DNA of 64,000 nt from contig MU004182.1 in the NCBI GenBank assembly GCA_010093605.1, positions 1,149,032-1,213,031 on the forward strand, written 5' to 3'. Both the position numbers and the translations under genes were made by a program. Source of the DNA: Lophium mytilinum. Lineage: Eukaryota. Positions 10,701 through 18,290 of this stretch are shown here, piece by piece. The notes under the pieces were generated by a model. That model was given only the letters and a program-made list of their open reading frames with translations. It made no database searches and was not told the DNA's origin. Each line of letters opens with the position of its first letter. Position 1 is the stretch's first letter.

Positions 10701-12146
10701 CTATTCCGAGAACCAAGGATGTTTAAGTAGATCCACCGCTGAAGGCCGCTTCGCCGGGTCATATTGCAAAATCTGCCTCACTAGGGAGCACACGACTGCC
10801 GTCTCCTCATCACCAATTTCGTCCGGCTTATTCTTGGCAAACAGCACTTCAAGAGAATCATGTATGTGAGGAGGTTCTCCCTCCCCGTATGGCGCTAGGG
10901 GCTCGTGGTTTGGCCCATACCATATGCTAGCGCGCGGCCAAGCGGCCATGATAGAGTCGGGCAGTGGCTGAATAATGTCGTTAAGCTGGGTAAGATGGTC
11001 ATCGTCTGCATCATCTTGCTCTTCCTGCTCTTTCGAAAGCATCATAACCGCGAATAGTGACCTACCCGTTAGAAACTCAAACACCAGGCATCCAAAGCTC
11101 CAAATGTCGATGCCGGAACCAAATGGCTGGTGTAGAATCAACTCTGGAGCGCGGAGGCCGATAGGCGTCACCGTGTCGCTTGGCGGGTCAGCTAACCAGA
11201 AAGCTGTGGGCATGCCGTTAGAATACGATCTTTTCATGTTTCGTAGTATCAAGAGCAATTTACCTGCACCTAGATCCGAGAGCTTCACGTGAAGATTTGG
11301 GCCGCTTTCCACGTGATCGTAGAGCGGCTGTTTGAGATAGAGAATCTTCGGTGCCCATCTGTCGTCCTTCTCATCGATCCTGTGTACGGGTATCGCGGTG
11401 CTGGCCTCGTCCTGCTTGAGCTCACCTTCTTCTAGAGACTTGATGTCTTTTATAGAGAAGAGTAGATTGCCTGGTTGGACGTCACCGTGTACCACGCTAA
11501 TTTCATGCAGGAAGGCAAGGCCGCGCAGTGCATGGAGAAGTATCTGTTTAGCCATCCATTTAGGATACCTCTGCCGCTTTCCCTTCATGGCTGGTTTATT
11601 CTCCGGCAGTTCTTCCACTAGTGAGGCAGCGGTTGCGCCCATAGGCTCGAACACCAAGCACTGATGCTTGCCGTTAGGGCCTTGATGCTGAAAGATGTCC
11701 AGCAGCACGGTGACGTGTTGGGCGTTGGGGTGGGCGGGAGCCGCTTTCTCGAGATGGTCGAGAATCTTAAGCTCCGTATCCGTTGTGGAGGCTTTAGCAA
11801 CCATTATCTTAAGAGCGACATACCGCGGTGTGCTATGGTGGCGGTCCTTGTCAACGATAGGACGCGAAATACAAGCAGAACAAAAGAAAAAAGAGAATTA
11901 AGGATAGGGAGAAGAATAAACGTACCTCGTGCTAACGGCTAGCCATACAGTCGAGAATGAACCGTCTCCGAGCTTCCTGATTACCCTATACTTGCCGGCA
12001 CAGAAGGAATCTCCAAGAGAAACCGGGTGAAAGCCCCCAGGCCGATAGAGCTCTACCCACTCGCAACAGGCACTCGTTTTCTTGAATCTCCAAGACTGGC
12101 GACCTGGAGGGAGCTCGACCGGGGGGGTCACGGGAGGAGAGGGCAT
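10701..12146 (-). CDS. SRPK/Sky1-like Ser/Thr protein kinase (fungal expanded clade)
   Basis: ELYRPGGFHPV, KLGDGSFSTVWLA, GPNGKHQCLVFEPMG, HGDVQPGN, LSDLG, LRAPE, DIWSFGC, LLKHPWF. Two canonical introns. Confidence 0.9.
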
Positions 12147-12341
12147 CGCGATAGCAGTAAAAGACGCGGAAGAAGGAAGAAACCGCTGCGATCAAGTCGA
12201 AAGAGGCCAGTGACGGTTGACGTACACAGGACTACGCGGAAGAGCAATGACGGCTTATCACGCTCTTCAGCACTCTTACTCAGTACCATAAACAAGGTAT
12301 AAAGATGTCTAGAGAAGGATGGAGGTATTATTCGGGCGTTA

Positions 12342-12800: not shown

Positions 12801-12863
12801 ACCCTTTGAACTTCCCAATGACCCTTTAGCCTTGAGCATCTCGGTCATACATCATCTTTGGAC

Positions 12864-15036
12864 ATGCGGTATTGGAGTACCTGGAGCGAAGTACTTTCAT
12901 GCCTCGCTCACCACCGCAGGTTCCTACCGTCAAGTTTCAATCTCAGCTCTTCTATAAAGCATCGCGTTCGGCAAATTAGCCATGACACGTCAGGGTCAAG
13001 ACCGCGGTATATCGGCTATGCGACGATTGCAGGCGTTGTTGGCACATCTTTCATTGTGAGCGTTGCTACCGTCAGCCTCTCCATCCATCGCACCAACACG
13101 AATAGGCAAAAATTAGCCACGGCGACTGAAGAACAGTGGCCAGTCCATGGGCACATAAAGTCTAGCACCGGGTCCAATTTGGCGTCATCTGGAATAACAA
13201 GATCTGACGGAAGCATCCCCTTTACCTACGATCAGCTGCGCCGGGAGGAGAAGACACGCCTCCTGGTTCTCGAAGCCGGAGAGCCAGAGGATGAACTGAG
13301 GTGTAGGCTGAACCATGTCTCTACTCTTCAGGACTCGCAATACGAGGCATTGTCATACGCGTGGGGCGAGCCTTCGACGACACATTCAATCTACACTCCG
13401 GAAGGTAGTGTTCTGATCACCGCCAGCCTATTTGGAGCCTTGCGTAGGCTGAGACTACCTGATCGGGCTCGAGTCATCTGGGCTGATCAACTATGTATAA
13501 ACCAAGAGGACGAAATTGAGAGAGGACATCAAGTGCAATTCATGAGAGAGATTTACGAAAACGCGACCCAGGTGATCATTTGGCTTGGAGAGGAATCATC
13601 TGTTGATCAGCGCGCCTTTCAATCTCTGGAGATCATCGAAAACAGTCTCGGACTGCCCTACCCGACGCCGGCTACTGGCATGGGCTGGAGAAGACAAAAG
13701 AGTAAGGCTTTGTCTGGAGGTACCATAATGGGGCCGCTCGCCAACGTCGATTCTGATCAACTAGCCAATCTGCTTCGGAGGCAGTGGTTCCGTCGTACAT
13801 GGATAGTCCAAGAAGTTGCAAGCACGAAGAAGGCCACCGTTATGTATGGGTCACAGATAGAAGCCATGGGAAGAGTTCGCAGATGTTTTCATGCGGCTCC
13901 AAACCTTGCCTGTGGACATAGGTTATGTGGAAGACGCCGATATCGTGAATTCCAGGAACAAAATCGCTGCTATCGAAACTGCTAGAAGATCCCGCAACGG
14001 ACCTTTGCACATGCCTCTTTTCCAGATGCTACTAGCCACCTCATACAATCAATGCTCCGATCCCAGAGACAAGGTATACGCTATCCTTGGATTGGGAAAA
14101 GACTGGGACCGGAATCAAGATATGAACCCAGATTACACCGTTGGAATGGGGGAGGTCTACAAGAGATTCGCAATTTGGGACAGCAAGCGAAACGCAAATC
14201 TACGTGTGTTGTCATGTGCGTCGGGCCCAAAAGAGGACGGAGAATCGAGGATGCCTTCGTGGACACCGGATTGGACTAACATTGAAAACGAATCTCCATT
14301 CGTTCGGTATAGCGATCGCACGGGATTTGCAGCTTCGGGCAAGATGTTAGCAATGGCCTGGCATTCACACGATGGCAACACTCTTCATGCTGAAGGGAAG
14401 CTGGTTGATACTGTTCGGGAGCTTGGTTCATTGCCCACTTTCACCCCAGCTACTGGAGTCTTTGAGATAAACCAAGAGAGCATATCGCGATTGCAAAAGT
14501 CAAAGAAGTGGCTTCAGGATTGTCAAAGACTTGCAGAATCTGTCAATGGCCCTTTGAGCAACGACGAGTACAACGCTTTCGCGCGAACCATGACTTGCAG
14601 CCTGACTGGCGATGCCTTCCCCGCTCCAAGTACCTACTCAGCATACTTCAAAGAGTATATGAGGTTCATGGATACCACGCCAGAGAAATACGCTGAATAC
14701 TACAAAGAGTTTGTGTCATCACCGAAACGGTTAATGGGGGCCGATGAGAGAAATCCTTACTTCAGAGGCCATACATTTATCGAATCTTCCCTACAACAAT
14801 GGACGTCGAAACGCCGGCTCTGCACCACCGAAAATAGACGATTGGCAGTGGTACCAAAGTCAGCAAGAGCTGGAGACGCAATCTGTGTTTTGTACGGTGG
14901 CGAAGTTCCCTACGTTCTCCGGCCTGCTCCCGATGGCTTCTATTTCGTTGTTGGAGAGTGCTATGTAGATGATATGATGCATGGCAAAGCTCTTTCAGTC
15001 CAAGGTCTTCGACCCACACGATTTCGGCTGCGGTAA
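12864..15036 (+). pseudogene. HET-domain (het-6-like) gene with one frameshift; pseudogene or sequence error
   Basis: HET motifs YEALSYAWG, WADQLCINQ, QVQFMREIY, WLG and WFRRTWIVQE are in one frame. CSDPRDKVYAILG, MPSWTPDW and VPYVLRP...VGECYVDDMMHG are in the next frame. The frame shifts by +1 at 13854-13860. Confidence 0.85.
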
Positions 15037-15426
15037 TCATGAAAGAATGAACTAGAGTCAGAGCATATACATTCTTTTTAGTACTCATCAACGCACCAAA
15101 AATTCTACTCGTGATCCTAGTTTCGCAAGCATGGAGAGAAAAGAACTTGAGGAACCAGTCCACCCATGCGAAGTCGACAGAGCCCCTTCTTGATGGCGAT
15201 GGCAGAGGAAGATAGGCCTGTCGTTGAGTAAACCGAGTTCCGTGTGCTGCAACCGTCCAAGAGCTCCCTCCACGAACCACAGCGTTGGCTCCTGTCCCCA
15301 GCCCTGCGGTGTTCTTCTACTCATGCTTCCCACCACGGAATGACATCGCAATGAGCCTCGAGGCCGTGCAGACCTTCGGTGCATGATACAGAGCGATCAT
15401 GAAGAGCGAAGCGAAGATCGTTATCA

Positions 15427-17718
15427 CTAAGTAAGTTGAAACGTCTCCAAAGGAACGCCGCGCGCCTTCAAAACCTCAGGCAGCATTCTAGGGTCCGAAT
15501 TCATCTCTTCGCCAGTGATCTTGTTCCGGAATGCTCCGAAGGTTTCGGGATCGCTGCGTACTCTATTTCTTCTTACCGGCTCCCATCCTTCAGGCAGAGG
15601 ACCCAGCCGGGGATCTTCAGACATTGGTATAGTCTGCGCTGTAATGGAGTTGAAGAGGTGATAGGTTGTTCCACCGGCGTTATCGGTTGCAACCTGTACG
15701 ATCCAAGGCTCGGGCAGCGGTCCAAGGAGCGCATTTGCGTCAGCTAAGCCATGGACGTAGCCACACCCAACAACCAGAAATCTTCCAGCTAAGGTCGGAC
15801 GTAAAAACATCGGAGAGTTGCACCCAAGAAAGACGCAGACAAGATCCTCTATCCAAACAGTTAGACTTAATTTCCAAGAGCCTGATATGATGGTTTTTAC
15901 CAGGCTTTGCTAATGTAGGACCCAGTCCAATATAACCTTCTTTTGTCGTTATGAAAGTGCGACCTGCGACATGTCCCATTATGCTTTTCAACTGAACATC
16001 AATCGCGTGTTCAACTTCCGCCCTACCTCCAGGACGAATAATATTGTTAAGTACGAAATTTTTCCACTCCTGAGTCTTTGGCTTGGCACTTATACTCGGC
16101 CACCGTTCTATAACCTCATTGTCGAGGAGCACTAATGCAAACGCAGTCTCTAAGCTCTCTCCTGTGATATATCGAGATGGAAGCGTCATCGCCTTTACTG
16201 CCCATGTCCGAACATCATCCGGTACGTCTTTACTCCACCACGAGGTTGGCTCGGTGGCAGTCTCGACAGTGGCACAACGAACTCCTAGCACCTCTAGCAT
16301 ATTTGGACGCTCGTACCGAAAATATGCACGAGATATCCCGCTGGAAATATGTTCACCAACGGCTGATATCCTTTCTTCTGCCGACGACCAGCTTGGAACC
16401 CAGGACGGAGCGTCGGCAATAGCAGTATTCATATCACAATACTGGAGCAGTTCCACTCGAGAATCATGATTCGAAGACGTAAGGAACGCGTCTTTGTAAA
16501 CCGTACCAACTGTGGCTGAGTAATCGGGTTCGATCTTTGCTAAGCTATTCGAGGCCGTAAGGCCTAGCAATCCGTAGATATAATCTCTGGGATTAGAACA
16601 CAACTGGTACATCATTGTACGAAGTAAGCGACCAAGCGAGAAATCTAATATTGGTCCAATAAGTCCTCCAAGAACGGACAGCAGTACACGAAGCTGAGGA
16701 GAAGGATAATCGCCTTTCACCGACATGCACCGCACCGCCCGACTTAAACGGGACCACAAGATTGTGTCATGTCCGCTCTGCACGAGCGCATGCTTATTGG
16801 CAAGATGAGCTTCCTGCCAGACCCATACACGGGAGAACCAAGAGCGTGTTAGTAGCTCTTGTACGGCCAGCCAAGTCCGGTCATCGTACGGTAAGACACA
16901 GTCCGGGTCATACCAGTCAGGTTCTTTGGCTGTGGGAGATCTCATTGCGCAGCTGTCCTTGGTAAATTCTACCTGAGCTGCGATGTAATCCAGTGTGTTG
17001 ATTGCCAATTTGCTGTTGTCTGCCTCTGGTCCAAGCCAGATGATAACGCGTTCAGCTGACTTGTATATGTTCGCCATACGCTTGACCTGCTCGTTGCGTT
17101 CATTCTCGTCACCTTGATACGGTGGTCTATTAGCATGGAAAGTGCAACAATTTAAATCTGAAAACACGTACCTTGATTTATGACCACAGCATCTACCCAT
17201 AGCATCCGAGATTTGTCGCAATATCGCAGGTACCTCAACGCGACGGAAAGATTTCGCGTAACCGGTAATAGCGATACGGCCTGGGATACAGCAGCGACAA
17301 CATAAGCGTTCTCTGGATTCTCTGCTGAACCCCAAGTATAGGATAAAGCTTCGTATCGCGGCTGATACTCGGTATATGGCATTTCTGGTGGTCGAGCATA
17401 GCGGGATCGCTCGATATTAGGCACTGGGTGCTCCCAAAAGTTCTGGCCTCTGCTGCCGAAGATATAATCTCCTTCAACGGTCTCAGAGACCCCCCATCCA
17501 GGCGGTAAGGTCTCCCTCACCTCTCTCAAAGACATTCTCTCCACTGGGCGCTCCTTAGGAACTACTAGGGGAGCATGACAGAGCTCGAACCGAATTGGAT
17601 CCTCAAATCTTCCCGGCAGGAGCTTTATGAGCCTGATCTCCTCGGTCTCTCGGTCCAGCGGGGCATATTGATAAGGCGCCGCTGCGGAGGGTATCGAGGC
17701 CTTTGATCCAGATTCCAT
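15427..17718 (-). CDS. HET-domain protein with three WW-like modules
   Basis: EIRLIKLLPG, YEALSYTWG, WVDAVVINQ, QVKRMANIY, WFSRVWVWQE, PRDYIYGLLG, PSWVPSW, VVGCGYVHGL. Introns 17113..17171 and 15849..15900. WW-like segments LPPGW...WEHP, GPLPEPW...EDPR and GPLPEGW...SDPR. Confidence 0.9.
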
Positions 17719-18069: not shown

Positions 18070-18115
18070 ACTTATCTAGAGACAAACATAGCATAAGAAT
18101 TTGCCTAGCAATGGA

Positions 18116-18290
18116 CCTGCTCCCGACGGTTTCTATTATGTTGTTGGAGAGTGCTCTGTGAATAATATCATGCACGGCAAAGCTCTTTCAGTTCAAGGTC
18201 TTCGAACCACACGATTTCGGCTGCGGTAATCTTGTAGGAGGTAGAGATGAGCCAGTCACAGCATATACATTCCTTTCAATACTCATCAAC
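18116..18290 (+). pseudogene. Orphan diverged copy of the last 38 codons and 3' UTR of the HET gene at 12864..15036
   Basis: 18116..18229 aligns without gaps to 14923..15036 (102/114 nt identical, including TAA) and translates PAPDGFYYVVGECSVNNIMHGKALSVQGLRTTRFRLR*. The 3' UTR block AGCATATACATTC...TACTCATCAAC is also shared. Confidence 0.92.

Follow-up and report, generated by a model that had tools for sequence, protein, structure and literature searches.

Three WW-type modules within a conserved subfamily of fungal HET-domain proteins: a locus in Lophium mytilinum

The DNA considered here is a window of 64,000 nucleotides (nt) from contig MU004182.1 (assembly GCA_010093605.1) of Lophium mytilinum, a member of the Dothideomycetes, order Mytilinidiales. 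On its minus strand, from 17718 to 15427, lies a three-exon gene whose spliced product is a HET-domain protein of 726 amino acids (aa). This protein contains three short segments, one in front of the HET core (WW-N) and two in tandem close to the C-terminus (WW-C1 and WW-C2, or the C pair), and we regard it as close to certain that all three are WW-type folds. The initial annotation, a model's reading of the sequence alone, had described a HET protein with three WW-like modules and given its span as 15427..17718; this is the exact extent of the gene on the minus strand, with the ATG and the stop codon at its ends, although two introns (17171-17113 and 15900-15849) were absent from that account.

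The gene model was read from the DNA, in which three consecutive open frames on the minus strand lead from a start ATG at 17718-17716 to a stop at 15429-15427. Exon 1 (17172..17718) encodes Met1 to Gln182 and the first base of codon 183, and its product matches P0004, the database entry 'HET-domain-containing protein' of L. mytilinum; exon 2 (15901..17112) encodes residues 183-587, the codons at both of its ends being split, and exon 3 (15427..15848) encodes residues 587-726 and the stop. Intron 1 (17113..17171) is a GT..AG intron of 59 nt with its donor at 17171, and falls within a HET motif between VINQ and GDENER. Intron 2 (15849..15900) is 52 nt long, again GT..AG (GTAAAA ... CTAAC ... AG) with a CTAAC branch site, and its position is conserved in the family. 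The joined exon translations are identical to P0004. One contig of a public run, X1, matches the locus without differences and skips exactly 52 nt (15849-15900) and 59 nt (placed at 17113-17171 after a shift of 2), both skips reading CT..AC on the plus strand; the contig therefore lacks both predicted GT..AG introns, which is the pattern expected of a spliced transcript. Run X1 is RNA only by our guess, and we use it solely for what its contig bridges. The same contig, 5161 nt long, continues some 2.7 kb past 15300 toward a neighbouring HET gene, which does not of itself show a single transcript.

WW-N (17425..17508, residues 71-98; LPPGWGVSETVEGDYIFGSRGQNFWEHP, reading from 17508 to 17425) lies between an N-terminal hairpin and the first strand of the HET domain, and carries both tryptophans of a WW domain (W75 and W95) as well as the closing proline (P98). 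It had been placed just before the HET core at 17425-17509; the placement holds, the HET match beginning at residue 122, but the limits were one base off. A stretch of 42 aa containing the module, searched alone against the PDB, gave 13 matches at E<=10, 11 of them WW proteins (SAV1, SMURF1/2, CEP164, a designed WW, Su(dx) and YAP1 appear), with a best E of 1.2e-4. A family profile built from 36 members gave 116 PDB sequences at E<=1, of which the best 60 are all WW proteins with matches spanning the whole WW; E-values reach 2.8e-11 for NEDD4L, 3.2e-9 for YAP1, 6.5e-8 for Prp40 and about 3e-7 for single NEDD4 WW chains (2m3o, 2.6e-7). Against 5.8 billion proteins the profile made 39 matches at E<=1e-3, consisting of HET relatives, one Ectocarpus multi-WW protein and insect NEDD4 ligases. 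The Pfam WW model also falls on the N module in relatives of P0004: P0249 has 27.2 bits (cut-off 26.9), four others score 24.5-25.5 bits and a further three about 10 bits. In the AlphaFold2 (AF2) model of the full-length protein the module forms strands at 76-80, 85-89 and 92-94 with predicted local distance difference test scores (pLDDT) of 96-98, and its signature is well kept across the family (W75 and W95 each in 151 of 165 relatives, H97 in 144 of 164 and P98 in 162 of 164). Residues 71-98 are a WW domain. One relative, P0033, has a very large insertion in the WW-N loop between strands 2 and 3.

The two C-terminal repeats, expected at about 15487-15725, were found at 15723-15607 and 15603-15487. 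WW-C1 (15607..15723, residues 629-667) has W635, P666 and strands at 635-641, 647-653 and 659-661; WW-C2 (15487..15603, residues 669-707) has W675, P706 and strands at 675-677, 693-695 and 701-702, and its first loop is longer by about eight residues and includes a conserved DDP. There is no linker between them (DPRLGPLP). The absence of the second tryptophan from both repeats, which the initial annotation had remarked on, is confirmed by S663 and N703 at that site, so that the two-tryptophan signature (about 20-22 residues apart) occurs only in WW-N. The proline after the second-tryptophan position is kept throughout, as P666 in 139 and P706 in 140 of 142 relatives, like P98 of WW-N. Comparison of the repeats with hhalign relates C1 to C2 with a probability of 98.3% (E 1.2e-14) and the N module to C1 and C2 with 88.3% and 49.1% respectively. 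With a profile of the pair, 58 PDB sequences were matched at E<=10, comprising 55 WW proteins and, at the bottom, three serpins; the best are Su(dx) WW3-4 (2.6e-9), WWP1 (2.3e-7), Itch (1.1e-6) and Rsp5 (9.1e-5), and the best stretch is always on C1, from LGPLP to DPR. It is through C1, by the hhalign comparison, that C2 appears tied to the WW profile homology. Two Fusarium relatives have Pfam WW matches of 34.9 bits (P0052) and 35.0 bits (P0197), in both cases summed over two stretches, the better one lying on C1.

The likeness to WW domains exceeds what chance would give (E 2.8e-11 for the N profile, 2.6e-9 for the pair, 98.3% between C1 and C2), and structural models agree with the profiles on the three modules. 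All three segments model as three-stranded sheets, as WW folds should, with DSSP strands in each at pLDDT 89-98, although the strands of C2 are short. Modelled on their own, the last 101 residues (pLDDT 93.8, predicted template modelling score (pTM) 0.75) again have three strands in C1 and three short strands in C2. Searched with VIA, this C-terminal model has WW entries in 15 of its first 18 rows (Z 3.1-4.3), and whole single-WW chains superpose on C1: MAGI3 WW1 (Z 4.3, root mean square deviation (rmsd) 1.7 A, 34/34 residues), FE65 (Z 4.0, 1.9 A, 33/33) and Pin1 (Z 4.0, 1.2 A, 31/31). With Foldseek, the 23 rows listed to rank 25 for the C-terminal model are all WW entries (best E 2.5e-3), and the first 13 rows for the 726-aa model are all tandem-WW entries (E 0.044-0.17). 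Over residues 668-712, the Atlas's own model of this protein gives alignments with the WW parts of clusters of YAP, Nedd4, WWOX and KIBRA type (template modelling (TM) scores of 0.63-0.69), a lead that is 'under the bar'; in eight of ten Atlas structure rows the aligned part is a Pfam WW.

Several results run counter to the WW assignment and have to be set beside this evidence. P0004 has no Pfam WW match at E<=10. A check with the PF00397 profile, proposed along with the initial annotation, succeeded in relatives at or above the gathering score (P0249, P0052 and P0197) and failed for P0004 itself; among the 16 relatives scanned, three reach 26.9 bits, eight fall below (10-26.4 bits) and five have no match. 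The refutation envisaged with the initial annotation, segments with neither a three-stranded WW model nor a WW profile score, is not borne out by these models and by the scores in relatives. No Foldseek match reaches E 1e-3 for either the full or the C-terminal model, and VIA values of Z<=4.3 for the WW units fall in the range that is common for unrelated folds with that tool, although in our judgement so short a domain is unlikely to reach a much higher value. Finally, the evidence for the fold of C2 consists of its homology to C1, its DSSP strands and the Atlas lead.

The remainder of the protein is a chassis of N-terminal hairpin, HET core, helical middle, beta-barrel and terminal strand. 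The full-length AF2 model, WW units included, has a pLDDT of 94.0 and a pTM of 0.92. The N-terminal segment (17569..17679, residues 14-50, YxYxPL..IRL..LLPG) is conserved in the family and forms strands at 27-33 and 43-50. Beyond WW-N, a variable linker (17356..17424, residues 99-121) with five prolines leads into HET strand 1. The HET domain (PF06985; 16811..17355, residues 122-283, intron 1 included) is upheld as such by a Pfam match of 110.1 bits against a gathering score of 22.5 (E 1.6e-31) over profile positions 1-146 of 146. A long variable region (15965..16339, residues 441-565) precedes the beta-barrel (15733..15964, residues ~566-625, intron 2 included), whose strands lie at 568-615 in the AF2 model. 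The barrel limits are our own rather than those of the Pfam match, and denote what we take to be the part behind the precomputed Het-6_barrel match (PF26639.1) of P0004; local hmmscan did not report PF26639 for P0004, that copy of the library perhaps being without the model. The protein ends, after the C pair, in a conserved tail (15430..15486, residues 708-726) with a helix at 710-715 and a terminal strand at 721-725.

Structural comparison of the HET core points, at low scores, to TIR-type folds. The best VIA rows for the 726-aa model span residues ~115-340, only one chain reaching Z>=5. Judged from their titles, about 25 of the 50 rows belong to the TIR, ThsB or SEFIR type, and others are nucleoside 2-deoxyribosyltransferases; the best row is the TIR domain of SpbK (Z 5.0, rmsd 3.6 A, 96 aligned), and the TIR domains of MyD88 (Z 4.8) and SARM1 (Z 4.6) are also present, all weak values. 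With the full model, Foldseek matched the HET core to nothing at E<=1e-3. The weak VIA values agree in kind with the remote homology of HET and TIR domains stated in PMC10890737 and PMC12881547, while falling short of proof. Six columns are invariant in an alignment of 120 sequences, namely L21, E283, D359, W420, R667 and D705. E283 stands in the WxQE motif that ends the Pfam HET match (~16813-16811), D359 in a DPRD motif (~16585-16583) and W420 in a PSWVP motif (~16402-16400). If the HET core is a TIR-like enzyme, E283 is a candidate for its catalytic glutamate.

The chassis is shared with stand-alone HET proteins of the Het-6_barrel kind, one of which is encoded next door. A second HET gene (12822-15036, plus strand) codes for no WW units, contains at least one intron (near 13861-13985) and converges on the HET-WW gene, about 390 nt separating the two stop codons. 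Its product aligns to P0004 at residues 121-312 (E 5e-24) and 335-627 (E 6e-15), so that HET core, middle region and barrel are common to both, but only a short stretch separates its N-terminal segment from the YEALSY motif, with no WW-N, and it ends 13 residues past the barrel (...ALSVQGLRPTRFRLR) where P0004 continues for 99. By eye, this short tail resembles the tail of P0004 (KARGVPLETFQLT), and we infer that the insertion point of the C pair probably lies between barrel and terminal strand. The latter is seen when the full length is modelled and is missing from the isolated C-terminal model, which suggests that it would pair with the body of the protein. The WW units are therefore loop insertions at two points in a chassis common to the WW-less neighbour. 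Among stand-alone HET proteins, passages of PMC12881547, a 2025 review, name HET-6, PIN-C and TOL of Neurospora crassa as studied examples, state that an over-expressed HET domain is sufficient for cell death, and mark the biochemical activity and structure of HET as 'ND'.

The HET-WW gene is also bracketed by two direct repeats on the plus strand, at 14923-15092 and 18116-18290, whose copies lie about 3.2 kb apart; one repeat is 124 nt long with 88% identity and the other 37 nt with 89%. The first copy comprises the 3' end of the neighbouring HET gene and the sequence downstream of it, while the second is a relic, in which an open frame at 18092-18229 holds ...PAPDGFYYVVGECSVNNIMHGKALSVQGLRTTRFRLR. 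The HET-WW gene thus lies between duplicated ends of another HET gene, and this flanking duplication could be the trace of an insertion or of a local duplication. Upstream of the gene pair, at 10701-12191 on the minus strand, are two open frames with protein-kinase-like motifs (..GDGSFSTVWLA.. and ..HGDVQPGNLLF..).

The representative relatives of P0004 number 51,493 at E<=1e-3 and 2,597 at E<=1e-30. In an alignment of 185 sequences, we found the N module in 166 and both C repeats in 142. Forty of the 185 were first taken to be without the C pair, but this was rejected, because all 40 are unspliced open reading frame calls that end a few residues past ...PG, where the conserved phase-1 intron 2 has been read through; read-through endings such as PGK.. 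are seen among relatives P0050-P0188. Protein sets called without splicing consequently hold many members that falsely seem to lack the pair. Five relatives (four lichen-fungus proteins and P0048) have no WW-N but keep the C pair. When 8,000 candidates were scored with the pair profile, 197 proteins matched at E<=1e-3; among the 120 of these that were listed, no Pfam family besides HET, Het-6_barrel and WW occurs, and four have no Pfam entry. More than 100 representative proteins retain the HET-WW architecture. Several relatives carry the automatic UniRef name "WW domain-containing protein". One relative, P0270 from Fusarium beomiforme (819 aa), has a precomputed PF01636 match beside HET and Het-6_barrel. 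The source names cover many genera, which we take to belong to the Dothideomycetes, Sordariomycetes, Leotiomycetes and lichen-forming fungi, that is, to range across the Pezizomycotina.

Conservation was measured as the mean column entropy of each region. The tail is the most conserved part (1.82 bits), followed by the HET domain (2.09), the barrel (2.12), WW-N (2.18), WW-C2 (2.23) and WW-C1 (2.51), while residues 441-565 (3.00) and the linker at 99-121 (3.25) are the most variable. Two Lophium paralogues and a Mytilinidion protein, the three closest relatives, are 37-43% identical to P0004 in residues 441-565 against 62-67% in C2. By this measure the WW modules are among the more conserved parts of the protein, comparable to the HET core. 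Such constraint bears on the proposition that the WW units are simply tolerated in loops and have no specific role beyond stability. Both insertion points do lie in a chassis that works without WW units in other HET proteins, the five relatives lacking WW-N manage with the C pair, and the strand 2-3 loop of WW-N has accepted the very large insertion of P0033. Yet conservation on a par with the HET core, the invariance of R667 and D705 at the ends of the two C repeats, and retention in relatives from so many genera would all be surprising for passive insertions, and we consider this explanation improbable.

Equivalences to known WW domains were taken from HMMER alignments of the WW-N and pair profiles, and so are alignment-based rather than structure-based. 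Among the 142 relatives with both C repeats, the features of the WW core are generally present: the first tryptophan in 127 for C1 and 137 for C2, the core aromatic (F/Y) in 132 and 129, the asparagine in 106 and 111, the threonine in 106 and 121, and the final proline as given above; the closing DPR motif of each repeat hardly varies. The positions expected to contact a ligand are different. The second tryptophan, kept as W95 in WW-N, is replaced by variable residues in C1 (S663) and by asparagine in C2 in 96 of 142 (N703), and tryptophan is not among the eight commonest residues at this site in either repeat. The strand-2 tyrosine of the binding groove corresponds to isoleucine (77) or leucine (58) in 135 of 166 relatives in WW-N (I86 in this protein), and is variable in C1 (H650) and C2 (A692). 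The histidine that forms the pocket for the tyrosine of PPxY ligands is without a conserved counterpart in the WW-N profile alignments. C2 has instead conserved basic residues at R694 (R/K in 98 of 142) and K696 (K/R in 84 of 142). On these alignments C1 and C2 appear to have lost both canonical ligand residues, the groove tyrosine and the second tryptophan, and WW-N one of the two, while the WW core is kept.

These substitutions are a difficulty for the function suggested in the initial annotation, that of integrated sensors or decoys coupling recognition of proline motifs to HET activation. All three modules would then be working PPxY-type receptors or integrated decoys, and capture of a ligand would release the HET death domain. 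This has some attraction, given that WW-N retains both tryptophans, the final proline and a Thr/Ser two residues before the second tryptophan, and that WW domains of the Nedd4/Rsp5 type, to which the modules are homologous, are binders of PY motifs. There is also a precedent of sorts in het-B Bh, where a C-terminal domain of lectin fold determines specificity in another HET protein, according to the passages of PMC10890737 that treat it. Like the protein described here, het-B Bh is a HET protein of the non-NLR kind with an added C-terminal interaction domain, and the same passages put the arrangement at about 5-10% of Sordariales HET proteins; its added fold is a lectin and not a WW domain, however, and the WW-bearing family has no known polymorphism or partner gene. 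Against PPxY recognition stand the aliphatic residue in the groove of WW-N, the variable groove and second-tryptophan sites of the C pair, with asparagine prevailing at the latter in C2, and the missing pocket histidine; moreover, the modules are conserved rather than variable, and are constitutive in the subfamily. We therefore think it distinctly unlikely that the three modules act in this way.

Judging from its motifs, the C pair most resembles the WW domains of the Nedd4/Rsp5 family (Su(dx) WW3-4 in 1tk7, WWP1 in 6j1x, Itch in 5cq2, Smurf2 in 2kxq and Rsp5 in 3olm and 4lcd), with which it shares an LGPLPxGWE start, a central F/Y-x-N-x-x-T and a closing (E)DPR (LGPLPxxW ... N..T ... DPR). 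The C-terminal model reaches its highest fold similarity, Z 4.3, both with Rsp5 (rmsd 4.3 A, 64 aligned) and with the MAGI3 WW1 chain mentioned above (34 aligned). The differences are that C1 and C2 have no second tryptophan, no groove tyrosine and no linker, and that their host is a death-domain protein rather than a HECT ligase. The resemblance admits a bolder reading, in which the linker-less pair would be a captured copy of WW domains of Rsp5/Nedd4 type and the family would guard the Rsp5 ubiquitin-ligase pathway. The WW units might then serve as bait for mycoviral or other antagonist factors that strike the Rsp5 WW domains through non-canonical surfaces, and capture of such a factor would release the TIR-like death domain. 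Were it true, these proteins would be a fungal, non-NLR counterpart of the integrated-decoy immune receptors, but we think it very improbable.

In its overall form the C pair is also comparable to the WW tandems of SAV1, KIBRA and MAGI. For the C-terminal model, Foldseek ranks SAV1 WW2 and the KIBRA and MAGI tandems (6jjx, 6kkg) highest (E 2.5e-3 to 1.3e-2, probability 0.91-0.98), and in the alignment from the search with the N stretch the second WW domain of SAV1 is likewise without its second tryptophan. Tandems of this one-tryptophan type are engaged in PY-motif binding and in dimerisation. By analogy, the C pair could be a self-association module that gathers HET/TIR-like domains in the manner of SAV1. 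SAV1 tandems recur among the matches, including 7bqf, entitled 'Dimerization of SAV1 WW tandem', and the TIR-type matches of the HET core include proteins that form filaments or higher-order assemblies (SpbK, MyD88 and MAL), signalling by assembly being established for TIR domains. The mutual orientation of the two units is different, however: TM scores to the SAV1, KIBRA and MAGI tandems are 0.27-0.33 with rmsd values of 8.5-15 A, those to SAV1 alone being 0.28-0.33 and 8.5-9.0 A. The behaviour of the terminal strand, present only when the whole protein is modelled, further suggests that the C-terminus is turned back onto the protein itself. Self-association of this kind is unlikely in our estimation.

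Our preferred interpretation is that, in this HET subfamily, the WW modules have a fixed role in protein interaction or regulation and are not polymorphic sensors of proline motifs. Their task would be either internal, keeping the death domain in place or orienting it, or external, docking a conserved partner of a non-PPxY kind, and any variation that determines specificity would more likely reside in residues 441-565. That the modules are conserved and not variable fits a fixed role better than it fits a polymorphic sensor. Taken as a whole, a WW-bearing HET protein whose modules serve fixed regulatory or docking ends is, in our view, the probable account, by a modest measure; its functional half considered separately is tentative, and we would place it a little short of an even chance. 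Three considerations temper it. The functional argument depends on residue equivalences drawn from alignments and on conservation; a proline-type ligand for WW-N may still be accommodated, given that its would-be ligand face shows conservation of W95, of T93 and of aliphatic character at position 86; and high conservation would also fit a sensor whose target is itself conserved. The proline-rich linker at 99-121 is a candidate intramolecular ligand of WW-N.

HET proteins and WW domains are each well known, and databases already flag WW domains in some of the relatives, but their combined architecture is undescribed in the literature we searched. There we found no paper describing HET proteins with WW domains and none on PF26639 or Het-6_barrel; the sole paper in which HET-domain and WW-domain terms both occur cites PRO40, a WW protein of no relation. 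No death module is commoner in filamentous fungi than the HET domain, and how stand-alone HET proteins are switched on is described as an open question in the discussion of them in PMC10890737. A conserved and widespread subfamily with three WW folds in defined loops offers a concrete handle on HET activation, in that one can delete or mutate the modules or employ them as baits, and their degenerate ligand sites predict a role other than the canonical one.

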